Positions 21,126 to 48,485 are shown, counted from the stretch's first letter. The stretch is 64,000 bases of DNA from an uncultured delta proteobacterium (GCA_963708295.1 CAVPSJ010000014.1:96001-160000), one strand, 5' to 3'. Numbers and translations are program-made. Notes: a model not told the origin generated them from the letters alone.

Positions 21126-21145
21126 ACATCCTGTGAGAATAGTAA

Positions 21146-21247
21146 AAGAAGAAATTTGTTTAGTAATCTGTCAGACATTATAAGAAGAAATTAGTTTAGT
21201 AAAATAAACTTGAAGGAATTATAACGCCCTCTTCCGGTTTGTCAAGT
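21146..21247 (-). promoter_or_regulatory. sigma70 promoter + operator, copy A
   Basis: TTGACA (21240-21245) -16bp- TATAAT (21218-21223); palindrome GTTTA-N6-TAAAC at 21194-21209; partial second site ~21146-21165; closely matches 32952-33017. Confidence 0.8.
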
Positions 21248-21389
21248 ATTTTTTTTGACCGATCGGAGGGAGCCCGGAGATCTCTGATGGCACCGATCAG
21301 GATTGTGTCAGTCAAAGAGCCATGTTATCATTTTTTAGGATGCCATCAGGTCTTTTTGGAATCATGTCGTGCCTGCGGGATAGGAAACC

Positions 21390-24352
21390 ATGAAACGGCG
21401 GAGCAAGCTGTCTGTCTACCTTTATATTCCGTTTTCGCTGATTTTCCTGTTAACGGTTTGGGATGTGGGGGCTGGCGAACGAGAGCCTCTCCCCGGCCAA
21501 GAGACACTTCGCCGTTGGGTGACCGAGATGAAGATCTCGCCACGGGGTCCCTTCCAACGCATCCGTTGGTTTTGTAAAGATGGAACCCTTCATCCGCCCA
21601 CGGAATATGCCTGCCGCGACAGGGGCGGCGGGGTGCAGCATGGGGAGTGGACCGAGCGCGTGGTTCTGCTCCGATCCAATGCCTATTTCATCGCCAATGT
21701 GTTTGCCGATGTTCGCCCGGAGATATTGCTGGCACAGCCGGACGCGGAGAACGTCATCAAACAGATGATTCTTGAGCAATACTTGATCCGTGCGGACGAC
21801 GGGTGGATATTGCGGCACGCCCGTTACTACCGCGGTGCCCTCCAGGACGAGGACGAGAGCAGAGGCGGCCAGGGACTTCTGCTCGCGATGGTGTCCAACC
21901 CCGCTTGGCAGGAGGCGCGTTTTCCCGTCCTTCGGGAAGCGGTCAGGTTTATCCCGCACGGTCGCTCCGGAGCTCCTGTCAGCGAAATGCGCCAGCTTTC
22001 CCGGGCGCTTGGGGAAGCCGATCCCGAATTCCAACCGCTGCGCACTAAAATCCATGTCAAACCCGAACTCGGCGATGCCGAGCGAGTGCGGCGCTATGGG
22101 ACGACGGCAGGGCAAAAAGGATCTGGCCGGCGATTATGAGAAGCTGGCCGTGTTAATCCAGAAGGTTTTTCAACCATCGGATGCCCGCACAGAAATCCTG
22201 GCCTTGAACAGAATCGTTTCATCCAAAGTCCTTTCCCAGGAAATTCGGGAAACAGGCGGTCGACTGGGCACCGATCGCGATCCTGCGACACGCTTCGAGG
22301 CGAGCTGCCGGATGCTGGCTTCTATACGCGGACAGCTGGGATCGGTCGGGGACAGGCGCGTGAGGCTGGCATTGCTCGACGCGAGCCTGACCCTGGAACA
22401 GGACCTGTTCCTAACCGGAACGATCCTGATGGATCGGCTCCCACGGGCCTCCCGCAAGGAAAGACTTGAATGGTTGAAAGCCTGCGCGAACGGCCTCTAC
22501 GGCATGGGCCTTATTTCCGGGCGTCAGCGCGAAAGTTTGCTCGACACCTTTCAGGGCATCTCCGGTCCATCCGTCCGATGGGACGATTACAGGGCGGGGT
22601 TGAACTATGCCGCCCGAGTTCCAGGCTGGGCGGACCAGAACCTGCGTTTCCACTTCACATCGGCCGTTGACACCTTGTTGGTGCTGGAGCCGCTCACCAG
22701 CACCTACCTTAGCGACCGGGTGCGCGGCAGCCTGTTGATCGTCTATTCCTCGGTCCTGGAAGGCCTGCTGGCCGATGCGAACCGCCAGTTTGGGATCGCC
22801 AACCGTATGATGGATCGGAGCAGTGGATGCAGGGCTCACCGCTTTGAATCCCGGGATTGCCCGTGGAGTGCTCAAAGTGGCCAAGGCCGGTGACGATCCG
22901 AAAACATTCTCTCGCGACGGGATCTATGTTCTGCCTGCAACGATGGAAGATCTCCCTTCCGTGAGGGGCATCCTCACGGCAGGAAAGGGGAACATGCTTT
23001 CCCACGTCCAACTTCTGGCGCGCCATCTGGGTATTCCCAACGTCGCCGTCGATCAGAGCCTCCTGCCGCAGGTTTCCGCCTTGGAGGGGCGCTCCGTGGT
23101 GCTGGCTGTAAGCCCTGGAGGAATCGTACAGATCGCTCCGGACGGTCCCGAATGGGACGCGGTTTTCGCCCTGGAATCCCCCCTGCAATCCCAAGGTGCG
23201 TCAGCCGTCATCCGGCCAACCCTGGAAAAGCTGGATCTAAGCAATCGGAACCTCGTTCCGCTGCGTGATCTGCGCGTCTCGGATTCGGGGCGCATCTGCG
23301 GCCCGAAGGCCGCGAACCTCGGGGAGCTTAAGCGACATTTCCCGGAAGCCGTCGCCGAGGGGCTTGTGATCCCCTTCGGAATTTTCCGTTCGTTGCTGGA
23401 CCTACCCGTCGAGCCGGGCGGCTTACCCATGTTCCAGTGGATGCAGCGACAGGATGCATTGATCAAACGCCTGGCTCCGGAGCCCGCAAAACAACAACAG
23501 GAGGTCGAGCGCTACCTGGATCGCATGCGGCGCTGGATCACGTCCGCCGACCCGGGGATTGAGTTTCGCGCCAAGCTCCGCGCGGCCATGGAGAAAACCT
23601 TCGGGCCTGACGGGAGCTACGGGGTTTTCGTGCGCAGCGATACAAACGTGGAGGACCTGCCGGGTTTCACCGGTGCAGGCCTCAATCTCACCGTTCCGAA
23701 TGTGGTCGGGTTTGATGGCGTGATGGAGGCAATCCTCCAGGTATGGGCGTCCCCATTTGAAGACCGGGCCTACCACTGGCGGCAGGCCTCCATGGATCGA
23801 CCGGAGCACGTTTATGTGTCCATTTTGCTCCTCAAGAGTGTTCCGGTCGAAAAGTCCGGAGTGATGGTCACCGCGGACGTGGAGAATGGGACCCCCGGAT
23901 GGCTTTCCGTTGCTGTCAGCGAGGGGTTCGGAGGGGCTGTTTCCGGACAAAGGGCCGAGGAGCTTCGGATCAACCCAAGAAATGGCCAGGTTCATTTGCT
24001 TGCCCATGCGACGGAACCCTTCAAACGGATCTTATCGCCCAAGGGAGGAGTGGTTTCGCTGCCGGCATCCGGCACCGAGGCGGTGTTGAGCAGGTCCGAT
24101 ATCACTCAGCTGATGGCGCTGGCTGGGGAGATCCCCCAGCGCTTCCCCTGGCTGAAGGATAAGGATGGCCGTCCGGTTCCAGCGGATGTGGAGTTCGGGT
24201 TCGCTCGCGGCCAGCTCTATTTATTTCAGATCCGGCCCTACCTGGAAAGCAGCAAGGCCAAACGGAATCGATACCTCTGGCATATGGATGAGGTTTTTCT
24301 ACGGAGTGATCAGAAGGATGTGGACCTTGGCCAAGTTCCAAGGGAGAGGTAG
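21390..24352 (+). CDS. Exported PEP/pyruvate-binding dikinase-family protein, ~985 aa (frameshifts ~22100 and ~22820)
   Basis: Signal-peptide-like N-terminus; phospho-His swivel motif GILTAGKGNMLSHVQLLARHLGIPN; ATP-grasp motifs GPKAANLGEL, VRSDTNVEDLPGFTGAG, DVEFGF, FQIRP; three overlapping ORFs join. Confidence 0.8.
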
Positions 24353-24355
24353 AGG

Positions 24356-25661
24356 ATGAGAGTCCTTGCAATGGGAATCCTCCTGTTTAGTCTTTCCTGC
24401 AGCGCTGCAGGCGCATGGGCCTATCCGTTGGACGGATACGCGGTGACCGGTATCCGGAGGCTCGAGGGATACAGGCTTGCTCAGGGAGGAACGGTTCGTG
24501 GGCCGCAACAACCCAGAGGGGCTATGCTCACCCTGGGTGACGTCGATCTGCGTCTTTCCCAACGGCAGGATCTCATCCTTCCGGCTTCCGACCCGGCCTT
24601 TGTCGCCCAATTGAAATCATACCTGGGAGAAGAAGCCGACCGCTACGGGGTCGCCGTGCTGGACCTTTCGGACATGGAACGCCCGCGATACGGCGAGCTC
24701 CACGGTGATTACCGTGCTAATCCAGGCAGCGTGGGAAAGCTGATGGTGGCCCTTGCTCTGTTTCAGGTTCTTGCCGACATTTACCCGAAGGACATTGAGG
24801 CGAGGATCTCTATTTTGCGCAACACCATGGTGGAGGCCAGTGATTTTATTTATACCGATGATCATCCGGTGCCATTCTGGGAACCCTCGAGCCCCGGGAT
24901 AAATTACCGGCCGCTCCGGGTCGGTGACCGGGCAAACGTATGGACCTATCTGGACTGGATGATGTCAGCCAGCTCCAATGCCGCGGCCAGCATGGTCATC
25001 CGAGAACTCATGCTGATGGCGAACTTCGGAAAAGAGTATCCCGTGGGAGCGAAAGAAGGGAATGATTTTTTCAGGGCAACTCCCAGGCACAAGCTGGCCG
25101 AGCTGCTCACGCGTTCTCTGGTGGAGCCGGTGGCGCGGAACGGACTGGACCCGGAGGGACTCCGGCAGGGATCCTTCTTCACTTCGAAGGCCAATCAGAT
25201 CGTCCCGGGGGTCACGAGCCGTGCGACGCCCCGCGACCTGCTGCGACTGCTTCTCAAACTGGAGCAGGGGAGAATCGTGGACGCGTTCTCCAGCCGGGAG
25301 ATGAAGCGCTTGATGTATATGACCCAGCGCCGCATCCGTTTCGCGTCATCCCCTGCGCTCAATGATGCCGCCGTCTATTTCAAATCAGGGTCTCTTTACC
25401 GCTGTCGACCCGAGCCCGGGTTTACGTGTCGCAAGTACGAAGGCAATGTGGAGAACATGATGAACTCCGTGGCGATCGTCGAATCGCCGGCAGGCAAGAT
25501 TCACGCTGCACTATCTGGTGGCTTTGATGTCCAATGTGCCCAGGAAGAACTCCGCGGTGGCGCATCAGACCTTTGCGACGCGTCTTCACCGTCTGATTTC
25601 ATCATTTCATCGGGAAAGCGATGGGAACGCCGTAGGGGATCGGGTAAGGAAGCCGAACTGA
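24356..25661 (+). CDS. Exported serine hydrolase (class A beta-lactamase/PBP-like fold), frameshift ~25500
   Basis: Signal peptide ...AAGAWA; SxxK (SVGK), SxN (SSN), KSG; shifted C-terminus LHYLVALMSNVPRKNSAVAHQT. Confidence 0.8.
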
Positions 25662-26555
25662 CGGGATGTTGGGCTCGGCGGGTTTTCCCGAGCGGCGCAC
25701 GAGGACGTCTAACTGCACGATCAGGTCGCTCAGCCACGTTCCGCCGTCCGGGCTCCTGGCTAAGGCCGCGGCAATGTAACGGTAGCCTTCATGTTCAATG
25801 ATGCCGCTGTCGGAGTGAAACTCTTTCCATGTGCCTGATTTTCTGAAGATACGCGCATCCGGGTGAGTTGCTTGGAGGCCCTTGACGAACTTATGATTGA
25901 TGGCCGGGTTGCCGAGAATCGCCTTCATCAAGCGGCTGAATCCCGGGGAGACCAGTCCTCCCGTCTCAAGCAAGTAGTAGAAACGGGCAACTTGCAAAGC
26001 GGTGGCGCCATGAGAAAGGTTGCGGAGGGGATCCCGTTTCCAGGCAGGCGACGCGCTATAGTCTTTACCAACCCACAGTCCGCCATTCTTGGCCGGATCG
26101 TAGAGACGGTAGCGGGGTGATTGGAGCAGGTTCGCGAGAAAGTCTTTCCCGACCCGCTGGAGAAGATGGGTCGCTGCCTCGTTCGAAGAGTAACGGATCA
26201 TTTGCTGGAGTTCATTCCACGTCTTGTCGTTGAGCTCCATCTCTCCCCGGAAGATCCGTTCAAAGGCTCCGAGGAGGATGGCGATCTTGGGAAGACTCGC
26301 AGCGTACATCATTTCGTTCGGATTGGCATAGGCCATCCGCGGAGAGGAAAGGTCCGTGATATCCATCAGGGCGACGGAAAGGCTCTTTTCGGCTACGGCC
26401 TTCTGCAAGCGGAGTGAGGTGAGACAGTCTTCAAGACCCTTCTGGAGCCCGGGATCGCAGACCTCCTCAGCGGAAGATCCCTGGACGGAGTAGGCCGAGA
26501 GGAAAACCAGGGAAAGGGCCAGGCCGCACATGAAAATCTTAATCACCCGTAGCAT
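25602..26555 (-). CDS. Exported serine hydrolase (class A beta-lactamase/PBP-like fold)
   Basis: Signal peptide; YAASLPK (SxxK), YSSN, RKSGT, HSDSGII. Confidence 0.85.
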   Translation of the reverse strand: MLRVIKIFMCGLALSLVFLSAYSVQGSSAEEVCDPGLQKGLEDCLTSLRLQKAVAEKSLSVALMDITDLSSPRMAYANPNEMMYAASLPKIAILLGAFERIFRGEMELNDKTWNELQQMIRYSSNEAATHLLQRVGKDFLANLLQSPRYRLYDPAKNGGLWVGKDYSASPAWKRDPLRNLSHGATALQVARFYYLLETGGLVSPGFSRLMKAILGNPAINHKFVKGLQATHPDARIFRKSGTWKEFHSDSGIIEHEGYRYIAAALARSPDGGTWLSDLIVQLDVLVRRSGKPAEPNIPSVRLPYPIPYGVPIAFPMK

Positions 26556-26615
26556 AATGGGTATATATAAGGGGTAATGTGAGCGACTTTCAAGTGGAAA
26601 AGACAATTCGAGAGT

Positions 26616-27878
26616 TTGGTGAGCAGCTGTCAGGAGAAATACCCGGCTCTCCGTTCGCCCGGGATCCGGTCGGGTTTTTTGTTTTTCAATTTTTTTCTCA
26701 TGATCATGGCCTATTACCAGGTGAAGCCTGCCAGTCGCTCGCTCTTCATCGAATCCTTAAGCTCCAGCCGAATGCCTTACGTGTGGATTGCGAGCGCTCT
26801 CGCCATGGGTTTCTTTATTACCTGGTATCACCGTCTGGTGGAGCGTCACAGCCGGATGCATGTCGTCCTGGGTACCTGTCTGTCGGTTTCCGTTATCCTT
26901 CTGGCGTTTCGCCTTGCTTCCAATCAGCCCGGCCCAGTGCAATCTGTCCTGTTCTACGTCTTTGTGGATATCATGGGGGTGGTTCTTGTCGAGCAATTCT
27001 GGAGCCTGACCAACTCCATCTATACGACCTCAGAGGGGAAAACCTGGTTTGGCATCGTAGGGTCGGGGGGGCTCGTGGGCGGAGTTGCGGGTGGCTGGGC
27101 AGCAGCCTTGCTGATTGAGCACACCCCCATGAAGACCCCTGATCTTCTCGTGATTGCAGCCGGGATCATCCTGCTCATTTCTGTTTTGACATGGGCCATG
27201 GGCCGGATCGGTCTCTATTGCGAGGTTGAGCGGGCAAATCACAGGCTTCCGCCGACTCATGGCTGGCAGATCTTGAGCCAGAGCCGCTACCTTCTCCTGA
27301 TTGCTGCCCTTTTACTACTGGCCCAAATTGCCTCGCCCCTTGTGGAATACCAGTTCTTGAATACTGTGGAGAAAGTTTATACCGAGGTGGATGCTCGCAC
27401 GGCCTTCTTGTCGATGTTCTTCGGCACCATGGGATTGATTTCGATCGGGATCAACGTGGTGATCACGCCACTCGTGACCCGTTTCTTGGGGACCATCGCG
27501 GGTTTGCTCGTGCAGCCCGTCATGATGGGTCTTTGCTCATGGGGTTTTCTGCTCCACCCCACGCTTTTTTTCAGCGGCGCCACCAAGATCAGCGATCGCG
27601 CCCTCTCTTACTCCATCAACCGCGCCTCCAAGGAATTGCTTTATGTTCCTGTGGATCCGGTTCTCATTTACCAGGCCAAGGCCTGGATCGACATGTTCGG
27701 TTACCGCACGTTCAAAATCGTCGGGTCGGTTCTCATTCTCTTAATGACCCAATGGCTGCCCGTGACCATGAGCGTCAATGAGCTCAGCTGGTTTACCATC
27801 GTCATCTGCGGCCTTTGGGTGATGTTCGTGATGTTTCTGCGCCAGGAATATAAGGTGATTTATCAGAAAACCCAATGA
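26616..27878 (+). CDS. NTT/Npt (TLC, ATP/ADP translocase) family nucleotide transporter without HEAT extension
   Basis: AYYQVKPASRSLF, EQFWSLTNSIY..EGK..FG, VEYQF, YSINRASKELLYVPV..YQAKAWID motifs; ~12 TM. Confidence 0.82.
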   Translation: MVSSCQEKYPALRSPGIRSGFLFFNFFLMIMAYYQVKPASRSLFIESLSSSRMPYVWIASALAMGFFITWYHRLVERHSRMHVVLGTCLSVSVILLAFRLASNQPGPVQSVLFYVFVDIMGVVLVEQFWSLTNSIYTTSEGKTWFGIVGSGGLVGGVAGGWAAALLIEHTPMKTPDLLVIAAGIILLISVLTWAMGRIGLYCEVERANHRLPPTHGWQILSQSRYLLLIAALLLLAQIASPLVEYQFLNTVEKVYTEVDARTAFLSMFFGTMGLISIGINVVITPLVTRFLGTIAGLLVQPVMMGLCSWGFLLHPTLFFSGATKISDRALSYSINRASKELLYVPVDPVLIYQAKAWIDMFGYRTFKIVGSVLILLMTQWLPVTMSVNELSWFTIVICGLWVMFVMFLRQEYKVIYQKTQ

Positions 27879-27916
27879 GGCGAGTGCCGACGTCCAGCTC
27901 TTCATCAAAGGTAAGA

Positions 27917-28275
27917 TCAGGCAGCTTTTTCCATTTTGATAGATTGGGATAAGAGATAGGTTATGAGGCGTTTAGACTCACACCTTCCTCCTCCGCTTTT
28001 CTGACCAATTCTCTGTGGAGGCCTTTTGGAACCCTGACATTAAACTGGCCGCTGAACCGGGTCTTAGGCTTGGGAAGAAGTATTCTATGTTTCTTCATTG
28101 TGTCCATTGTCAATCCCAAAGCTTCTTGACTATTTTTTACCGCTTCTTCAAGGCTATATCCTCCGGTGATAATGCCAGGAAAATCAGGAAACCTCACAGC
28201 CAAGTATCCAGACTCCCTATCTGGAATAATTTTTATCTCATAACCTAACCGTTCCTCTTTTTTATTCTTTCTCAT
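27917..28275 (-). CDS. hicB: HicB family antitoxin (frameshift near the C-terminus)
   Basis: VRFPDFPGIITGG.SLEEAV; FSGQFNVRVPKGLHREL..AEEEGVSLN; shifted tail ITYLLSQSIKMEKAA*. Confidence 0.88.
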
Positions 28276-28278
28276 AGG

Positions 28279-28512
28279 TCAATCCTCCTCCAGGATTCTG
28301 ATCACATCTTTAACATCCAACCAATGGCAATGCTTACGCGCTCCATGAGGTTTGACGACTGTTAAAATCCTATTTCCCTTCTTATAGACAGGGTGGCTTC
28401 CCCTGATATTTACCCGTTTAAACCCTGCCCCGAAAATGACTCTCTCCAGCTCTTTAAATCTCACCCCTTTTGGGTTTTGCTTCATCCTGGAAAGGTCTTT
28501 TTCTATTCCCAT
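28279..28512 (-). CDS. hicA: HicA family toxin
   Basis: NPKGVRFKEL...GF...RGSH; immediately upstream of hicB. Confidence 0.85.
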   Translation of the reverse strand: MGIEKDLSRMKQNPKGVRFKELERVIFGAGFKRVNIRGSHPVYKKGNRILTVVKPHGARKHCHWLDVKDVIRILEED

Positions 28513-28668
28513 CTCGAAAACAGAATAACTGAATATAGTTACAAATTCAAGAAAAAATATCCCCCAGCGTCCAATGAATGTCAGTTACCGGCGAAATCAG
28601 TAAGAGTTAGGAACAGAAGGTGAAATCCGATATCTAGCGAGCCTCAAGCTGTTTCCGAAAGACTTATC

Positions 28669-29518
28669 TTACTCGTCTTTCCAGTTCCAATTCCTGCCGC
28701 CTTTGAAGACGCCTGCGTTCATTTCGTTGCTGATAAAGAGGTTGGCGTCCGGGAAGCGTTGGACCATGGCGTAATAGAAGCAGCCCTCGTCTTTGGTTTT
28801 GGCCATCTCCTCTTCCGTGGCGATCAGGTAATCTTTCGTAAAGCTGTACGAAGAGGAATCGAAAGGCATGCCCGGTTTCTGATGGCCGGGAATGATAACC
28901 TCCGCACCGATCTTTTCTAACCGCTCAATATCCCGTATCCATTGCTGACGTTCTTCCGCCGTAAGCTCGCAGGTAAAGGGGTGCGCCTGGTTAAACAGGA
29001 CGTCGCTGCCGTAGAGGGTTTTTATGGAAGGTATCCAGACCACCGAATTGTATTTCATGTCGCCCACGACTTCCGGAATAATCTCAATCCGCTGTCCTTC
29101 CAGCTCGATGGAGTTCTGGCTTAGAGACTCAATATTGACGGTTTTTCGGCATACATTGGTCGGCTCCGATAACTTTTTCCCAATGATCGAGTTTTCCAAA
29201 AAACTGACGATTGATGGTGCGGGCTACCGAAGCGAGCGCGGTGACCCGGGCGGACGGGAAAGCCTCCGCAATGACCCCCAGCCCGAAGTAATGGTCAGGA
29301 TGAGCATGAGTCACATAAATCGTTTCGAGATGTTTGCCGGTTTCCGCTATTTCCGCGATGACTCGATGGGCATTCGATAGTGTCCACTGGGCATCAATCA
29401 GAACGGCATTGGTTTTCCCCATCACGATGACGGAAGCAACTTCAAAACCTTTTTCATCGCTAAAGAAAACCTTGGTAGACAGCGAATTCGATCCGTGGTT
29501 GTTGATTCTAACTTCCAT
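28669..29518 (-). CDS. MBL-fold metallo-hydrolase (frameshift ~29180)
   Basis: VLIDAQ, THAHPDHYFG, GSDVLF, IIPGH. Confidence 0.85.
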
Positions 29519-29597
29519 AGACTCACCTCCACTCATAGGTTGCTGGAAAAATGACTATTTCTCAGGCTGCTCAAAAATGCCCGGATTGATGCAGGGG

Positions 29598-29798
29598 TTA
29601 TGCAAGCTTTTTTTGTCTTTTAATGATTTCTGCCAGCGATCTCAATGCCTGATTTACAGAGTCGTGATCCGGGAAAATTTTGGCAACATCGGGCTCAATG
29701 ACTACAACATTTGTCCCCTCAGCATATCTTCTTGCATATTTCCCCCGGATGCCTTTGCTGAAATCATATTCTTCAAGCATGTCTGGATCTTTTGGCAT
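29598..29798 (-). CDS. Small BrnA-like antitoxin-type protein
   Basis: DMLEEYDFSKGIRGKY...VVIEPDVAKIFPDHDSVNQALRSL; no cognate toxin gene upstream. Confidence 0.6.
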   Translation of the reverse strand: MPKDPDMLEEYDFSKGIRGKYARRYAEGTNVVVIEPDVAKIFPDHDSVNQALRSLAEIIKRQKKLA

Positions 29799-29804
29799 TT
29801 TCTT

Positions 29805-29916
29805 TAAACATTCGATCTGAATCAAAGTCACGCCGACTTTTATTCTTGGCAAAGGACAGAGCTTCCTTTGCAGCATCCAACATATGCCGGATCCGAATCA
29901 GATCATCCCTGCGCAT
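29805..29916 (-). pseudogene. Truncated HEPN/DUF86 (HepT) toxin
   Basis: MRRDDLIRIRHMLDAAKEALSFAKNKSRRDFDSDRM then breaks off; overlaps the MNT stop codon. Confidence 0.7.
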
Positions 29917-30212
29917 ATTGAACCTCTGCAGAATCGAGCACCTGCTGTCTGAAATAGCGACTCAATTCTGCTGGCGTCCTCAAATCCACTTTCCTCTTAA
30001 GAATGCCTGAAAGCTCAATCTCCATTCCTGCCAAACGCAGCAGGCCAACAGTCTGACCTGATTCGAATTCCACAAGGACATCCACATCGCTGTCAGGACC
30101 AAAATCTTCCCGCAGAACAGAGCCAAAAAGAGAAAGTCTTACGGATATGATGTTTTCTGCAAAAAGCTTCGATTTTTTCCTTGGGGATCTCAAGCTTATT
30201 TTTTTCTCTCAT
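29903..30212 (-). CDS. Minimal nucleotidyltransferase (MNT/MntA antitoxin), frameshift ~30140
   Basis: LSLFGSVLREDFGPDSDVDVLVEF...RKVDLRT; N-terminus MREKNKLEIPKEKIEAFCRKHHI in the adjacent frame. Confidence 0.85.
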
Positions 30213-30424
30213 TGTCTCCACCTTGATACGCTTCTAAGATAAAATTCCAATTTAATAATACACAAAGACAAGCATTTGCAATTCAACCAATGCATCCACG
30301 GCCAAAGATCAGAATGGAATTATGGTTATGTTCTTAGAACCCCCGACTCACAATATTTCTGCCAAGAGAACTAATATCTTCCCGCCAATGCCTCATTTAA
30401 TGACTTCACTCAGAAGCAGATGCA

Positions 30425-31560
30425 TCAGGATAATCTATTTTTATAATCCTGATAATTGAATTCTCTGATTAATCTAAATCCTGACTCTTCGATTCCATAT
30501 TCCGATGGAGGGATGGTTGACGCCGTTGAACATCGTGGTTTTGACGGTCGTGTAATGAATCATGTCATCAAATATGATTTTGTCGCCGGGTTTTAATTCT
30601 TTATCAAACGACCAATTCCCCATGTAGTCGCCTGCCAGACAGCTGATCCCTCCCATTCGGTAAGTGGGTTTTCCTGCCAGTTCATCGGTAGCGCCCAGAA
30701 TAAAAGGTTTATAAGGCATCTCAAGGCAATCGGGCATATGGCAGGTAAATGAGACGTCGAGAATCGCTGTTTTGATGCCGTTATTTTCAACAATATCCAA
30801 TATCGTAGAAACCAGGTAACCGGTTTGATAAGTAAAAGCGCTGCCGGGTTCCAAGATGACTTGAACACCGTAATTATTTTTGAAATCAGTTAAGAGTTTA
30901 ATCAGATGGTTTGTATCGTAGCCTTTCTTTGTGATCAGATGACCACCGCCCATGTTCACCCATTTTAGCTTAGGTAAGAACTTGCCAAATTTCTTTATGA
31001 AAACAGCCAACACCTTTTCGAGCGCAAAGGAATCGGCCTCAAACAATGTATGAAAATGAAGCCCTTCAACCTCCCGGGGTAGGGCATCGCCAAGCTGCTC
31101 GGCAGTGATGCCAAATCGGGAGCCGGGTTTGCAGGGATTATAGATGTCATGGGGTGAATCTGAAAACTCTGGGTTCACACGCAAGCCAATCGAAACACCT
31201 TTTTGCCTGGCGACCTTGGAATACTTTCGCAGTTGGTTTATGGAATTAAAGGAGATATGACTGCTGTATTTCAAAATGTCTGAGATCGTCTTTTCTTCAT
31301 AAGCGGGCGAATAGGTGTGCGCCTTGACTCCGAGTTCCTCAAATGCCAATCGCGCTTCGTTGAGTGAACTTGCCGAAGCGCCAAATCCGTATTCTTTAAA
31401 GATCGGGAAAACTCCCCAGTTCGCAGAAGGCTTTAAAGGCAACGAGAATATCAACCGCAGCGGCGTCTCTAACCTGTTTTATTAAACCGAGGTTATTTCG
31501 GAGCAGAAGCTCATCGATCACATAACACGGGGACGGGATTTTGTTGAAGTCAATGGACAT
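30425..31560 (-). CDS. nspC: Carboxy(nor)spermidine decarboxylase (two frameshifts)
   Basis: IPSPCYVID, LVAFKAF, GLRVNPE, NPCKPGSRFG, HFHTL, NMGGGHLIT, LEPG, CLAGD, MIHYTTVKTTMFNG, DYKNRLS*. Confidence 0.9.
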
Positions 31561-32913: not shown

Positions 32914-32951
32914 GGTCGATCACCGCCTGCTCCACTTCTCCGAGAGAACAG

Positions 32952-33017
32952 TATAAGAAGAATTTAGTTTAATAAAATAAACGAAAAAATTATAACGCCC
33001 TTTTTTGCTTTGTCAAG
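32952..33017 (-). promoter_or_regulatory. sigma70 promoter + operator, copy B
   Basis: TTGACA (33011-33016) -16bp- TATAAT (32989-32994); GTTTA-N6-TAAAC at 32967-32982; matches 21179-21247. Confidence 0.8.
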
Positions 33018-33074
33018 CACTTTTTGTGAAGCAATGTTTCGAGGGTGTTCCCCTCACTCTCTGTCGTTGCAAAT

Positions 33075-33381: not shown

Positions 33382-36197
33382 ATGGAAAAGATCATCATTC
33401 GGGGCGCGAAGGTCCATAACTTAAAGAATATCGACGTGGAGATTCCCCGGAACTGTTTGGTGGTGATCACCGGGCTGAGCGGGTCCGGCAAGTCCACCCT
33501 CGCGTTTGATACCCTGTATGCCGAAGGACAAAGAAGGTATGTGGAGTCCCTCTCCGCCTATGCGCGGCAGTTTCTGGAGCAGATGGAGAGGGCCAACGTT
33601 GAGTCCATTGAAGGTCTTTCTCCTGCGATCGCTATCGATCAAAGGGGGATGTCAAGAAACCCGCGCTCGACGGTGGGTACGGTGACGGAGATCTATGATT
33701 ATCTCCGGCTCCTCTTTGCGAGGGTCGGAGAGCCTTTCTGCCCCCATTGCGGCTCTCCCATTTCGTCACAAACCCTTCAGCAGATGACGGAGACCCTTCT
33801 CCGCCTTCCCAAAGGGACATCCCTTACCATCCTTTCCCCCATCGTCAGGGATAAGAAAGGGGAATACCGGAAGGAGCTGGAGAATCTCCGCGGGGACGGT
33901 TTTGTAAGGGTGAGAATTGACGGGCAGATGAGAGACCTCAGCGAAGAAATCCGTTTGGATAAGAATAAGCGCCACGAGATCGACGTCGTGGTGGATCGTC
34001 TGGCGGTCAAGGAAGGGGCCGAAAAGAGAATCAACGATTCCCTGGAGATCGCTTCGCACCTTTCAGAAGGAATTGTAAAAGTGGAGCGGGAGGGATCCGC
34101 TCCCATCGTCTTCAGCCAGAAATTCTCCTGCATCCATTGCGGATTCAGTTTTCCCGAGATCACACCGCGGATGTTCTCTTTCAACAGTCCCCAGGGCGCC
34201 TGTTCCGGCTGCGGCGGATTGGGAACAAAGCGCTATTTTGACCCCGGGCTCATCGTTCCGAATCCCTCTCTCTCGTTGAACGAAGGTGCGATTCTTCCGT
34301 GGAAGGAGAGAGAAGAGGCTTTTCTAAGACCGATCCTGGAAGGATTGGCGAAACAGTATCGTTTCGACCCCGATGCTCCGTTTAATCGGTTGTCCAAATC
34401 CGTTCAGCATCTTCTCCTCTATGGGTCCGGAGGAGAAAAAATTTCCTTCAAGGTGAAGGGAAAGAAGAAGGCCCAACTCTTCCGGCAGGAGTTTGAGGGA
34501 GTGATTCCGGAAATGGAAAGGAGATCGAAAGAGCAGGAAGAGGACGATGAGGATTCCGAGGAATATAGGAATGTGGCCCCCTGTCCCGATTGCGGGGGGG
34601 CGCGACTGAAAAAGGAAGTGCTTTCCGTCAAGGTGGGTGGAAAGTCGATTGCCGAAGTCACCCATCTCTATGTTAAGGAGGCGTTGGATTTCTTAAAGCG
34701 TTTGGAGTTATCCCCGAGGTCTCAAAGAATTGCCCAAGGAATCCTGAAAGAGATCGAAGAGCGGTTGAGGTTTATGATGGAGGTCGGCCTGGATTATCTT
34801 ACCCTTGACCGGACGGCTGCCACCCTCTCCGGGGGCGAGTCTCAACGCATCCGTCTGGCGACCCAGATCGGGTCGAGTCTGGTGGGGGTGCTCTACATTC
34901 TGGATGAGCCCAGCATCGGGCTTCATCAAAGGGACCACCTGCGCCTTCTGGGGACGTTGAAACGATTAAGAGATCTGGGGAATACCGTTATCGTTGTCGA
35001 ACATGACGAGGAGACGATTCGATCCGCCGATTATATCATTGATATGGGACCCGGACCCGGGGAGAGGGGGGTGAAGTGGTCTTCACGGGATCTCCCGAGA
35101 CCCTGGTGAAGGCAGAGCATTCGTTGACCGGTCAATATCTTTCCGGGAAAAGATTCATCCCTCTCCCGACACAGAGAAGACCTGTGGCGGGGAAGTATCT
35201 CGTCCTCCATGGGGCCAACGCGAATAATCTGAAGAACATTGATGTGAAGATTCCCGTGGGGGTGTTCACCTGCGTCACGGGCGTTTCAGGGTCGGGTAAA
35301 TCCACCTTGATTATCGATACGCTCTATTGCCTGCTGGCACAGCAGCTTTATCGCCTTTCCCAGCGTTGTGTCTCCGTTCAGGGGATGGAAGGGCTGGAGC
35401 ACGTGGATAAGGTGATCCACGTGGATCAAATGCCGATCGGGAGAACCCCCCGATCCAACCCGGCAACCTATACCGGTGTGTTCCAGCCCATTCGGGAGCT
35501 CTTCGCCCAGCTTCCCGAATCGAGGATGAGAGGGTTTATGCCGGGTCGCTTCAGCTTTAACGTGTCCGGAGGACGGTGCGAAACGTGCCGCGGGGACGGC
35601 GTCTTGAAGGTAGAGATGCAATTCCTTCCGGATGTATACGTGACCTGTGAGGAATGTCATGGAAAACGGTACAACCGGGAGACGCTGGAGATCCGGTATA
35701 AAGGAAAAACCATTTCTGAAGTACTGGAGATGACGGCAGAAGAGGCGGATGATTTTTTCCAGGCAATCCCTGCGATCCGCCAAAAACTCCGGACCCTCTG
35801 CGATGTCGGCCTCGGATACCTCAAGTTAGGCCAGCCCGCCACAACACTCTCGGGCGGAGAGGCCCAGAGGATTAAGCTGGCAAGGGAATTGAGCAAAAGG
35901 GAGACGGGGAGGAGCGTCTACATTCTAGATGAACCCACGACGGGCCTCCATTTTGCGGATATTCAGAGATTGCTCGACGTCCTCAACCGGCTTACAGACC
36001 GGGGGAACACGGTCATTGTGATCGAACACAATATGGAAGTGATCAAGTCCGCCGATTATATTATTGACCTGGGCCCGGAAGGTGGCGAAAATGGGGGAGA
36101 GGTTATCGGAAGCGGAACGCCGGAGGAATTGATTCGAAATCCGCTCTCTTTTACGGGACAATATTTGAAAAAGAAAATGGCCAGAGATTTTACATAA
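33382..36197 (+). CDS. uvrA: Excinuclease ABC subunit A (frameshift ~35065)
   Basis: Two ABC cassettes ([21 protein letters not shown] twice), zinc fingers, [11 protein letters not shown]. Confidence 0.96.
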
Positions 36198-45683: not shown

Positions 45684-46710
45684 ATGCCAGAGAGATATAT
45701 ATTTTGGATTGAGGAGTTGGGGCAAGAGCATTGTGAGATTGTTGGGAAAAAGTGCGGCAACTTAGGTGAGATGGCGAAGATCGGATTACTGGTGCCCCCG
45801 GGGTTTGCACTCTCTGTGGAGGCCTATAAGGATTTTATGATTCAAACGAATGCCAGGAGGGAAATACAGAACTATCTGTCCCAGTTGAGTGGGGAGATCG
45901 AAACCATAGAACAATTCAATCAAGCCAGCAGGGATATCCGTCAGATTGTAGAATCGAAAGAGATGCCTGAGGCGATGAAGGATACGATTCTATCCTTTTA
46001 TGATGGTTTATGCCGTAGATGCGATTGTATCGTTGCGGTTTCGACGAGGTCTGCTGGGCCCGTCAGCCATCCTGGACAATATGAGACTTATCTCAATGTT
46101 AAGGGTAAAGCAGACTTATTGGAAAAGATTAAGAAGGTTTGGGCAAGCTCATTTAATCCCCGTTCTTTAGCCTTTCGGAAACGAAAAGCACTGCCCCTGG
46201 AGAACGATCCGATCGGTGTGGCCGTCCTGAAGATGGTCAATGCTCGTGCTGCCGGAGTTCTCTTCACAGCGGATCCCAATACGGGCGATACTTCTCGGAT
46301 GATCATCGAGGCAAACTGGGGGTTCGGGGAGAGTGTGGTCAGTGGTGAGTTGATGCCGGATGTCTATGTTTTGAACAAAGACACTTTAGAGATACTCGAA
46401 AAAAAACTGGGAAAGAAGTCGAAATATGTGACCTGTAAAGAATTAGGAGTAGCAGAGGAAGAGTGTCCCTGCCGATTTGAGTGCGTCCTTTTGTTTAAGA
46501 GACGAGGAAACAAAAGAGATAGGGAAATTGGGCATTTTGTTGGAGAATCACTTCGGTGTCCCGCAGGATGTAGAGTGGGCGATAGAGCGGGATTTAGAAT
46601 TACCCAAGAGCATTATACTGCTGCAGACTCGTCCGGCAGTCATCGCGCAGAAAAAGAGTCCCGTGGACCAAGTGGTTGATTTAATGCTGAACCTGTATTC
46701 AAAGGGGTGA
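45684..46710 (+). CDS. PEP-synthase N-terminal ATP-grasp subunit (phenylphosphate synthase beta-like), frameshift ~46475
   Basis: VGKKCGNLGEM, VPPGFA, RSAG..SHPGQYETYLNV, ANWGFGESVVSG, PQDVEWA, LLQTRP. Confidence 0.85.
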
Positions 46711-48485
46711 TCACCGAGGATCCGGATACCATCGAGAAGGTAAAGGCGATTTTAGGTCGTGAATCCATACTCAACCCATCTCTAATATTAGAAAGGAGGG
46801 CCAATATGTTGAGGCCAGCTTATGACTTAAGTTTTTATGAATTTGACGAGGAAAACGACCCCAAGAACTATGGCGTCCTTTTGTGCGACCTGGTCCACGG
46901 CAAACCTCCGATGAAACCCCTCTACATCGGAGTCGGTTGGTATTGGTATTACCATGGCGTCCGCTATGGGGCGGAAACACTCTTTTTAACCACGACTCAT
47001 GGCTGGGATTCCAGGTTTATCAAGGGCTATCCTTATATCACCGCAATCAGAACCACGGAAACAGAGGCCAAGGCGCGTGAACCGCTCTTCAGGGAGAAGA
47101 TCAAGCCCTTTATCGAGAACTTTGATGGCGTATGGAATCCACTCAAGACCGAATTGCTGGAAATATATAAAAGAGCCAAGAATTCAAGGGGCCTTAAGGA
47201 ATGGGGAGACATAAAAAAACTGAATAACCAAGATCTCCTCTCTTTCTTTTTGGATTTTGTCTATGTCATTAATCGAAAAGAGGCCGAAACCCACTTCGTC
47301 ATGTTCATGGCTTCTTATTACATCAGTGGTTTGTTTCAACAGATGTGGCGTGACCTATTCGGAACAGAAGCTCCCATTGATCCGAATTTCAGCAAATTGA
47401 TGGCAGGATATGAAAGTCAGGACCACAGGGTCGTCAGGGAGTTGTGGCGACTTGGAAGACGCGCTGTGGAACTGGGTTTAAGAGATGTATTCGAGAACAA
47501 TGAGGAAGAGAAAGTGATTAAAGAATTAGAAAAGAGCAAAGCAGGAGCCCAATGGCTGGGTGAATACAATGGATTCTTAGTGGAACATGGCTGGAGATGT
47601 GAACGGATGCATGCCTATGATACTCCAGCCTGGATTGAAAAGCCCAGTCTGGGTGTTCGAAGAGTCAAAATACTGATGACGAAGGAAGCCTTCCCTCTCG
47701 ATGCAGAGCATGATCGGGTCGTCGCAGAGAGAAATAAGACGGAGAAGGAAGTCTTGACGAAGGTGCCGGAAGCGCAAAGAGAAGCTTTTAGAATCTTGAT
47801 GGGAGCAGCCCAGAAATCTGGCTATTGGAGCGAAGACCATACGTATTATTGCGACTTCTACATCGGTTCCATGGGGAGGTGGATTGTCACTGAATTTGGA
47901 CGCCGATTTGCTGAGGCAGGATGTATTGATCATCCGGAAGATATCCATTTTTTGCATCCGAACGAGATAAGAAAGGCTGCCATCCCCATGGGAAGAATCA
48001 ACCTTCGTCCTTATGTGGAGCCAAGAAAGAAGGCCTGGGAAGAGAATCTTACCATAGATCCACCGCCTTTTTACGGAGACATCAGCCAAGCCCAGGCCGT
48101 GTTAAGGAGCGATCCTACCCTGGCGGTATCCACCCAACTTCCCATCGTGAGAGAAGAGCTGAAGGCAGATCTCTATGGGGCCGCTGCTGCCCCCGGGCTT
48201 GTAGAAGGTGTTGCGCGCGTGATTATGAGCGCAGACCAGTTATCGGAAATCAAAGCGGGTGAGATTTTAGTAGCCCCCGGAACCTCTGCTGCCTGGACGG
48301 TGGCCTTTAGCATTATCAAGGGCCTCGTCACAGATGGCGGGGGAGCCCTCTCTCACCCTGTGATCATGGCTCGTGAGTATGGGATCCCCTGTGTTGCCGG
48401 TTGTTTCGAAGGCACTGCGAAGATCAAGACCGGCCAGAGAATAAGGGTGGATGGGAACCTGGGAGTTGTCTATATCCTGAAATAG
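46707..48485 (+). CDS. PEP-utilizing phospho-His subunit (phenylphosphate synthase alpha-like)
   Basis: Large helical N-domain plus C-terminal swivel domain GLVTDGGGALSHPVIMAREYGIPCV. Confidence 0.85.
   Translation: MITEDPDTIEKVKAILGRESILNPSLILERRANMLRPAYDLSFYEFDEENDPKNYGVLLCDLVHGKPPMKPLYIGVGWYWYYHGVRYGAETLFLTTTHGWDSRFIKGYPYITAIRTTETEAKAREPLFREKIKPFIENFDGVWNPLKTELLEIYKRAKNSRGLKEWGDIKKLNNQDLLSFFLDFVYVINRKEAETHFVMFMASYYISGLFQQMWRDLFGTEAPIDPNFSKLMAGYESQDHRVVRELWRLGRRAVELGLRDVFENNEEEKVIKELEKSKAGAQWLGEYNGFLVEHGWRCERMHAYDTPAWIEKPSLGVRRVKILMTKEAFPLDAEHDRVVAERNKTEKEVLTKVPEAQREAFRILMGAAQKSGYWSEDHTYYCDFYIGSMGRWIVTEFGRRFAEAGCIDHPEDIHFLHPNEIRKAAIPMGRINLRPYVEPRKKAWEENLTIDPPPFYGDISQAQAVLRSDPTLAVSTQLPIVREELKADLYGAAAAPGLVEGVARVIMSADQLSEIKAGEILVAPGTSAAWTVAFSIIKGLVTDGGGALSHPVIMAREYGIPCVAGCFEGTAKIKTGQRIRVDGNLGVVYILK

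Follow-up and report, generated by a model that had tools for sequence, protein, structure and literature searches.

A 64,000-nucleotide (nt) stretch of DNA from an uncultured delta proteobacterium (GCA_963708295.1 CAVPSJ010000014.1:96001-160000), the window in whose full-length coordinates all positions are given, carries four closely packed genes at 21390-27878. They encode a putatively exported, GWD-like dikinase, two leader-bearing serine hydrolases of the SxxK type and a membrane carrier of the TLC/NTT family. We consider it an even bet that these genes form a self-contained, horizontally mobile module, in which the carrier would supply ATP to an extracytoplasmic dikinase that acts together with enzymes resembling penicillin-binding proteins (PBPs). 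The evidence for the whole module is computational throughout. An initial annotation of the same stretch had proposed a system for periplasmic phosphorylation, and this interpretation is supported here, in that the predicted export leaders and the linkage of the genes both held up.

Envelope biology takes the periplasm to be free of ATP, so that the known reactions of this compartment are driven by lipid-linked donors, by bonds activated beforehand such as D-Ala-D-Ala, or by energy passed on from the inner membrane. The module departs from this pattern by combining an apparently exported enzyme that keeps strictly conserved ATP-binding residues with a full-length homologue of ATP/ADP carriers and two penicillin-binding-type enzymes. 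If true, this suggests that some bacteria deliberately supply ATP outside the inner membrane. Since the module is present in at least 575 species-level genomes, the premise of an ATP-free periplasm becomes directly testable with four genes.

The listing of open reading frames (ORFs) and the Pfam matches place the four genes where they had first been annotated. The features discussed below are the following (aa, amino acids; PEP, phosphoenolpyruvate).

21390-24352, plus strand: GWD-like dikinase, putatively exported, about 985 aa (ORF listing, Pfam, and tblastn with the orthologue from the related genome G031)
21390-21473, plus strand: signal-peptide-like leader of the dikinase, from the translation (basic start, hydrophobic core, V-G-A; cleavage site placed by eye)
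21474-22820, plus strand: helical N-domain of the dikinase, family-specific and without a Pfam family (AlphaFold2 model of the orthologue)
22934-23044, plus strand: phospho-histidine swivel domain of the dikinase (PEP-utilizers, 22.9 bits; His codon 23003-23005)
23297-24268, plus strand: PPDK_N ATP-grasp (nucleotide-binding) domain at the dikinase C terminus (PF01326, 99.5 bits)
24356-25661, plus strand: hydrolase 1, class A beta-lactamase/PBP-A fold, about 435-460 aa, leader-bearing (Beta-lactamase2, 43.1 bits)
25602-26606, minus strand: hydrolase 2, class A beta-lactamase/PBP-A-like, about 300 aa, leader-bearing (Beta-lactamase2, 62 bits)
26616-27878, plus strand: TLC/NTT-family carrier, 420 aa, multi-span membrane protein (Pfam TLC, 62.5 bits)
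21257-30424, no strand: 9.2-kb insertion relative to the same-genus genome G013 (blastn of the G013 locus against the window)

Hydrolase 1 starts at 24356, 3 nt past the dikinase stop, and hydrolase 2 overlaps it convergently and is divergent from the carrier gene, an arrangement that agrees with the initial description. Once a frameshift near 25489-25506 is allowed for, the real end of hydrolase 1 is 25661 rather than 25801, so that the convergent overlap measures 60 nt and not 200; the G031 orthologues of the two hydrolases overlap by 59 nt. The probable start of hydrolase 2 is the Met codon at 26553-26555. Scans for promoters (5 against 3.2 +/- 2.0) and for terminators (9 against 7.8 +/- 2.5) did not rise above shuffled expectation. 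Metatranscriptome contigs that are 95-99% alike cover the dikinase, hydrolase 1 and hydrolase 2 genes, with some depth over the carrier gene; because DNA carry-over is possible, this match is a weak hint of transcription.

Linkage was counted at 80 dikinase loci, many of them on short contigs, of which 36 have at least 5 kb on both flanks. The initial annotation had named a failure of the four genes to be conserved together in other genomes as a case against it. Hydrolase 1 accompanies the dikinase at every one of the 36 well-flanked loci and hydrolase 2 at 33 of them; a carrier is found at 28, with 12 of these carriers belonging to the window's close subtype, and the full set of three partners is likewise present at 28. 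Across all 80 loci the counts are 73 for hydrolase 1, 61 for hydrolase 2 and 47 for the carrier. Hydrolase 1 lies directly downstream of the dikinase and on the same strand in 63 of the 68 loci with at least 1.5 kb downstream, and in Agaribacterium haliotis (L071) all four genes are co-directional and abutting. The same four genes stand together in dozens of genomes from several phyla, which puts the arrangement far beyond chance. The identity matrices of the four proteins also correlate (Mantel r 0.85 between the dikinase and hydrolase 1 and 0.45-0.58 in the remaining pairs; none of 999 permutations reached these values), a correlation that is also expected from shared species history alone.

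All-against-all clustering of the ORFs revealed no fifth family recurring in more than 7 of the 80 loci. A Peptidase_S51-CysS_C gene was considered as a fifth partner and dropped, as it matched in 1 of the 80 loci only, L093, which is the G032 contig itself. In G031 and G032 (L019 13710-14963 and L020 7408-8787), a Peptidase_S51 protein of the cyanophycinase/dipeptidase E type is fused to a CysS_C-like domain and encoded divergently from the dikinase.

The dikinase family is large and widely distributed. A HMMER search with the C-terminal piece returned 4393 representatives at E <= 0.001, of which 299 reach E <= 1e-30; among 150 representatives listed, most are about 930-1050 aa long and are matched by the query in their C-terminal half. 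A scan of one genome per GTDB species yielded at least 575 confirmed dikinase stretches, counted as species-level genomes, and record titles name Desulfobacterales, Gammaproteobacteria, Betaproteobacteria, Zetaproteobacteria, Myxococcota, Nitrospirota, Spirochaetales and others. Cultured, non-pathogenic hosts of the module include Agaribacterium haliotis, Parahaliea aestuarii and Parahaliea maris. In a maximum-likelihood tree of 34 dikinases, the sequences group largely by phylum label, with a few well-supported exceptions; Pseudomonadota and Thermodesulfobacteriota show 2 label changes each, and 0 of 500 shuffles gave a number as low. This grouping indicates an old module that is mostly inherited and occasionally transferred, with the window's copy as one such transfer. 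Searches with the N-domain found no match on 72,556 plasmids, and none of the four proteins matched a family among the PADLOC anti-phage models at E <= 0.01.

The dikinase, its partner enzymes and the carrier

The dikinase had been described as a protein of about 985 aa with a leader, a large helical N-domain, the motif SHVQLLAR and a C-terminal ATP-grasp domain, and all of these are present by Pfam, by translation or in a model of the orthologue. The PPDK_N domain scores 99.5 bits against a Pfam cut-off of 27 in the window and 111.3 bits in the intact, 1002-aa orthologue of G031, to which the window's protein is 62% identical over the C-terminal half. SHVQLLAR is encoded at 23000-23023, and its catalytic His is unchanged in 43 aligned dikinase sequences, in which the ATP-grasp columns Lys, Arg, Asp, Glu and Gln/Arg are likewise invariant. 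In the G031 protein the swivel (residues 519-557) precedes PPDK_N (residues 635-955), and Pfam finds no PEP/pyruvate-binding C-terminal domain in this protein or in the window pieces. Scores fall far under the cut-offs of the NCBIfam equivalogs NF005057 (96.6 against 598) and TIGR01418 (82.8 against 739.75). When the Protein Data Bank (PDB) is searched with a single sequence, the ATP-grasp domain matches PEP synthases and rifampin-phosphotransferase entries (E 2e-14 to 8e-14), and the family profile reaches E values down to 7e-37. Public names of the dikinase are generic ('phosphoenolpyruvate synthase/pyruvate phosphate dikinase', 'PEP/pyruvate-binding domain-containing protein').

The N-domain comprises about 445 residues and carries the motif RGPFxRIRWFCxDG...C...GGGxQHG, which lies at the start of the mature protein and contains two nearly invariant Cys. 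It has no Pfam family even at E <= 10, with GWD1_pHisD scoring 13.2 bits against a cut-off of 27. An AlphaFold2 model of the G031 N-domain, built with 112 sequences, is nearly all helix with one small beta element (predicted local distance difference test (pLDDT) 94.9, predicted template-modelling (TM) score 0.93), in line with the large helical domain first proposed. Foldseek gave no match for the N-domain in the PDB at E <= 0.001, and VIA-align gave generic helix bundles only. One structural neighbour in the Atlas belongs to a cluster in which 12% of the members carry GWD1_pHisD (TM 0.77 by query, 0.60 by row); this phospho-His domain may link the family to GWD, and we take it as a lead only. 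The N-domain is presumed to bind the acceptor.

The order of the dikinase domains is that of plant and algal GWD/PWD, in which an acceptor N-region is followed by a phospho-His swivel and a C-terminal PPDK_N. GWD and PWD phosphorylate a polymer and thereby allow hydrolases to act on it. Unlike these enzymes, the dikinase has an N-domain without CBM45, CBM20 or any Pfam family, and it is bacterial, leader-bearing and linked to PBP-like enzymes and a nucleotide carrier instead of amylases. PEP synthase, PPDK and rifampin phosphotransferase have the ATP-grasp and probably the swivel-His machinery in common with the dikinase. Relative to PEP synthase and rifampin phosphotransferase, however, its domain order is reversed, with the swivel before the ATP-grasp, and in contrast to all three the dikinase is predicted to lie outside the inner membrane.

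Both partner enzymes exceed the Beta-lactamase2 cut-off of 22 bits. In hydrolase 1 the SxxK, SxN and KSG motifs are encoded at 24725-24739, 24965-24979 and 25379-25393 and are invariant in 65 sequences; in hydrolase 2 they are encoded at 26286-26300, 26178-26192 and 25830-25844 and are invariant in 53. The hydrolase 1 family also has a conserved Cys pair. The model of a hydrolase 1 orthologue (pLDDT 89.5) has LRA-5, PBP-A and CTX-M as its best Foldseek matches, and comparison with class A beta-lactamase and PBP-A structures gives E values of about 4e-10 to 4e-9 and target-normalised TM scores of 0.64-0.76 at 13-18% identity. The titles of the PBP-A and LRA-5 entries among these best matches list Leu158Glu and Val166Glu mutants. 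The profile of hydrolase 2 weakly matches PBP-A Tll2115 in the PDB; single-sequence PDB searches with either hydrolase, and a search with the hydrolase 1 profile, returned nothing at E <= 0.01.

Hydrolase 1 thus has its fold in common with PBP-A of Thermosynechococcus (Tll2115) and with the class A beta-lactamases LRA-5, CTX-M and Toho-1, and the three motifs of this group occur in both hydrolases. At 464 aa against 255-277 aa, hydrolase 1 is about 170-200 residues longer than its PBP-A and beta-lactamase matches. The motif ExxLN, which holds the deacylating Glu of class A enzymes (Glu166), is not visible in either hydrolase consensus when these are read by eye, without a residue-level structural alignment. 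With ExxLN not seen, the two hydrolases may be read as PBP-A-like acyl-serine enzymes rather than true beta-lactamases.

The fourth gene had been named as an NTT (TLC) carrier, and its Pfam TLC score stands against a cut-off of 21 bits. Of the 423 positions in a profile built from 41 cluster-linked carriers, 12-419 align with 9j3n, 'ADP,ATP carrier protein 1' (E 1.2e-33), and with chloroplast NTT1 (9j3j; E 3.6e-28). Twelve of 18 scanned cluster-linked carriers pass Pfam TLC at E <= 1e-4, and the window's carrier gene is the sole such gene in its genome. The carrier resembles the ATP/ADP translocases of Chlamydia and Rickettsia and plastid NTT1 in its TLC score and in the end-to-end alignment of its profile to 9j3n and 9j3j. 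The cluster carriers are shorter, at 420-445 aa against 586 and 610 aa in the matched NTT chains, and their hosts bear the names of environmental lineages (sulfate reducers, gammaproteobacteria, myxobacteria), in contrast to the intracellular parasites that harbour NTTs. The direction that we propose for the module's carrier, ATP export, would also set it apart from characterised NTTs.

Two further carrier arrangements were observed. In a Sedimenticolaceae metagenome-assembled genome (MAG; L027 15174-17693), a second TLC-like carrier with a C-terminal STAS domain (840-aa frame) lies directly past the module's carrier. In the Halieaceae genomes G041-G044 (L082, L083, L085, L097) no carrier stands beside the dikinase, and a divergent pair of strong carrier homologues, about 0.3 kb apart, is found elsewhere in each of them.

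Export leaders were identified by a rule that considers hydrophobicity only and is not SignalP, namely a Kyte-Doolittle value of at least 2.0 over 12 residues within the first 60 residues. A lack of signal peptides in homologous dikinases had been foreseen as a case against the initial annotation; by this rule, leaders occur in 98 of 116 full-length homologues, and several of the remaining 18 proteins begin at the conserved RGPF motif and look, by eye, like short gene calls. Signal-like leaders had been assigned to all three enzymes, and the homologues bear this out for hydrolase 1 (65 of 69) and hydrolase 2 (58 of 58) as well. In the window, the dikinase, hydrolase 1 and hydrolase 2 each have one hydrophobic segment, which is N-terminal. 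Basic residues usually precede the hydrophobic core in the printed dikinase N termini, with small residues after it, and by the positive-inside rule these basic residues would place the bulk of the dikinase outside.

Reading frames and acquisition of the window's copy

In the window the dikinase is read in three frames, which match residues 20-248, 226-486 and 484-965 of the intact G031 orthologue by tblastn, with breaks near 22045-22112 (about 22101) and 22820-22827. Hydrolase 1 is read in two frames. With three breaks, two of them in the dikinase and the third in hydrolase 1, and with a module that is an insertion in this genus, the locus could be a decaying pseudogene island in this genome, with real frameshifts and nothing functional made here. 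Two sets of observations speak against this explanation. The first concerns the assembly, a 4.95-Mb MAG in 20 contigs, in which other genes of the window are affected too: uvrA is split into overlapping ORFs at 33382-35109 (575 aa) and 35076-36197 (373 aa), a second PPS-family gene is split at 45684-46679 (331 aa) and 46707-48485 (592 aa), and a decarboxylase at 30474-31454 is shortened to 326 aa against 381 aa in G013. Split or short genes of this kind in an assembly of only 20 contigs point to indel errors in the consensus.

The second comes from short-read contigs of closely related populations aligned to the region (runs X1, X2 and X4). At 22101/22102 all of the depth is 1 nt shorter in X1 (27 of 27) and in X2 (7.8 of 7.8), and the X2 and X4 contigs whose ends lie at 22822/22823 give a 1-nt-shorter stretch there; the shorter versions rejoin the reading frames at both dikinase breaks. 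A correction from reads had been called for at the outset. The two dikinase breaks are absent in close relatives, and the break in hydrolase 1 falls in a segment without coverage (25296-25512). At least two of the three frameshifts probably reflect errors in the consensus and not decay of the genes. In G032, too, both the dikinase and hydrolase 1 are split, which is why local decay keeps some likelihood; we regard a pseudogene island as unlikely, though to be taken seriously. In the spacer between hydrolase 2 and the carrier gene, the X4 contigs are 1 base shorter at 26604-26605, which may be another indel of the consensus or else a difference between strains.

The dikinase occurs in only three of 41 related genomes, G000, G031 and G032, and in none of 14 other same-genus genomes. 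Carrier matches at E <= 1e-160 are confined to the same three genomes of the 41, where they lie at the cluster, and 0 of 24 other genomes of the window's family has any carrier match. This distribution supports an acquisition of the carrier together with the enzymes in this lineage. The N-domain was found in 2 of 401 sampled genomes of the phylum, G000 included. The GC content of the module is 0.58-0.61, against 0.44-0.55 in its flanks.

Proposed function and alternatives

In the proposed mechanism, the carrier would exchange cytoplasmic ATP for periplasmic AMP or ADP (and inorganic phosphate, Pi). The Sec-exported dikinase would bind this ATP in its ATP-grasp domain and pass the beta-phosphate to the swivel His, with release of AMP and Pi, a step suggested by the chemistry of the PEP-synthase/GWD family and by the conservation of the residues. 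The swivel domain may then bring the phosphate to an acceptor on the helical N-domain, and the two exported PBP-A-like SxxK enzymes could act on the dikinase's substrate. This substrate would most likely be a cell-envelope polymer, either peptidoglycan (a glycan hydroxyl or the stem peptide) or another periplasmic glycan. The cell wall itself is a tentative choice, with the balance tilting against it. The same caution applies to a broader picture of a periplasmic ATP economy in many Gram-negatives, a possible but doubtful one, in which the NTT would export ATP and the dikinase would phosphorylate peptidoglycan glycan or a stem-peptide carboxylate, marking or re-activating the wall for PBP-A-like acyl-transferases.

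Several points weigh against an ATP-fed periplasmic dikinase. Its swivel match falls just under the Pfam cut-off of 23.1 bits, and the acceptor is a guess because the N-domain has no recognisable relative in the PDB. No carrier lies within 6 kb at 8 of the 36 well-flanked loci; all five genomes tested among those without an adjacent carrier have one elsewhere (E <= 1e-100). The carrier scores 45.4 bits against a cut-off of 387.2 in TIGR00769, the model for NTP/NDP exchange, and so stands far from characterised NTTs, and the other 6 of the 18 scanned carriers are linked solely by phmmer to the window's carrier and miss TLC at 1e-4. Specificity and direction of the carrier are not readable from its sequence, and within the TLC family NAD+ and other nucleotides are transported as well, while ATP is normally imported. 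A carrier homologue of 367 bits (G040:C144:27302-28537) occurs in an 803-aa open frame in a genome in which the dikinase was not found, so the carrier subfamily can exist without the module. Periplasmic ATP could leak through porins, which would make the scheme costly. The leaders on which export depends were called by hydrophobicity, and hydrolase 1 may really be broken in the window, as its frameshift is the one without contig coverage.

The relationship of the dikinase to rifampin phosphotransferase, which phosphorylates its compound in the cytoplasm, raises an alternative function, the periplasmic inactivation of a small molecule, for instance an antibiotic or toxin. Here the dikinase would transfer phosphate to this molecule, the beta-lactamase-like proteins would either hydrolyse or sequester the molecule or one related to it, and the carrier would supply the ATP. 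The rifamycin-inactivating phosphotransferase model NF041857 is indeed among the NCBIfam matches, and the PDB matches include 5fbs and 5hv1, which are deposited as 'phosphoenolpyruvate synthase' and which we take to be the Listeria rifampin phosphotransferase. Class A beta-lactamases are among the nearest folds of hydrolase 1, and the module is accessory and patchy (1 of 400 other sampled genomes of the phylum, 0 of 14 same-genus genomes) and shares its insertion with toxin-antitoxin genes. NF041857, however, scores 65.9 bits where its cut-off is 999, and the dikinase has its domains in a different order. On the side of the hydrolases, ExxLN was not found by eye in either consensus, and the best folds include PBP-A as well as the LRA-5 entries with the Leu158Glu and Val166Glu titles. 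The dikinase tree follows large taxa, so that a long-held envelope function fits better than a recent resistance cassette, and the plasmid search came back empty. We judge inactivation of a compound to be improbable.

A misread topology would remove the need for periplasmic ATP altogether. The dikinase leader would then be artefactual or stay in place as an uncleaved anchor, the enzyme would draw on cytoplasmic ATP at the cytoplasmic side of the membrane, and the TLC-like protein would be a transporter of the major facilitator superfamily for the product or an unrelated solute. This explanation draws on leaders judged by hydrophobicity alone, on a weak MFS_1 match of the carrier and the distance of its subfamily from NTTs, and on the 8 of 36 loci without an adjacent carrier. 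It has to contend with the pattern of basic residues, hydrophobic core and small residues in most dikinase homologues, which would leave the bulk of the protein outside, and with the conserved Cys pairs in the dikinase N-domain and in hydrolase 1. The fold of the partner enzymes is moreover classically periplasmic, with leaders in nearly all of their homologues (65 of 69 and 58 of 58), and the profile of the carrier aligns from end to end with ADP/ATP carriers (E 1e-33). These points make a cytoplasmic dikinase quite improbable.

Nucleotide or phosphate scavenging, in which the carrier would import nucleotides and the dikinase would act on external substrates (for example by reverse ATP synthesis from AMP and a phospho-donor, or by preparing a substrate for uptake), would suit the import of ATP or other nucleotides by characterised NTTs, the reversibility of PPDK-type reactions and the sediment and wetland bacteria that are the hosts, but it is highly improbable given that no high-energy phospho-donor is known outside cells, that it leaves without a role the two SxxK enzymes, which have invariant motifs and a tighter linkage than the carrier, and that genes for phosphatases, nucleases or binding proteins do not recur next to the module.

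The proposed export of ATP to a periplasmic dikinase has parallels in other compartments. The eukaryotic endoplasmic reticulum and Golgi hold lumenal kinases that receive ATP via a dedicated carrier, and Lig E is a periplasmic ATP-dependent DNA ligase. In these cases too, an enzyme that consumes ATP works in a compartment without ATP synthesis of its own; the protein families are unrelated to those of the module. We know of no dedicated ATP supply for Lig E, whereas here the enzyme and a candidate ATP carrier are encoded in one cluster. To our knowledge, no characterised bacterial system pairs an exported ATP-using enzyme with a candidate ATP carrier. The initial annotation had called the system undescribed, and we found no account of it in text searches of the open-access literature. 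Judged by sequence, each part is in a known superfamily and none is in a characterised family, and the combination of the four genes would represent a new kind of system, whose functional steps we infer.

If true, the reading implies that energy reaches the envelope by a new route and that NTT carriers serve a new purpose beyond intracellular parasites and plastids, and it would give the polymer dikinases of plant starch a bacterial counterpart. It would probably also mean that the cell wall, or a compound acting in the periplasm, is modified in a new way, and would admit energy-driven wall remodelling, which the textbook view of an ATP-free periplasm excludes.

Insertion site and neighbouring genes

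The insertion at 21257-30424 splits a polyamine operon, which comprises an agmatinase, a pyruvoyl arginine decarboxylase, a helix-turn-helix (HTH)-cupin regulator, and a decarboxylase and a dehydrogenase of the carboxynorspermidine type. Beside the module, its cargo includes HicB/HicA (27961-28512), fragments with a metallo-beta-lactamase fold (about 28669-29536) and a nucleotidyltransferase (29903-30193). The insertion is not bordered by direct repeats. In G003 and G010 the two genes that flank the insertion site are about 20 kb apart, a spacing that identifies a variable spot in the genus.

An intergenic element of about 80-118 nt occurs twice in the window, at 21139-21255 upstream of the HTH-cupin gene and at 32948-33025 upstream of a saccharopine-dehydrogenase-type gene, and both copies are present in G013. 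The first copy contains two 24-nt direct repeats (21143-21166 and 21179-21202) and, on the minus strand, a perfect TTGACA-16-TATAAT (21245-21218). The element is possibly a shared operator or promoter of the polyamine genes.

The second PPS-family gene of the window (45684-48485) encodes an N-terminal PPDK_N and a C-terminal PEP-utilizers domain, an order like that of rifampin phosphotransferase, has no leader and is followed by a UPF0261 gene.

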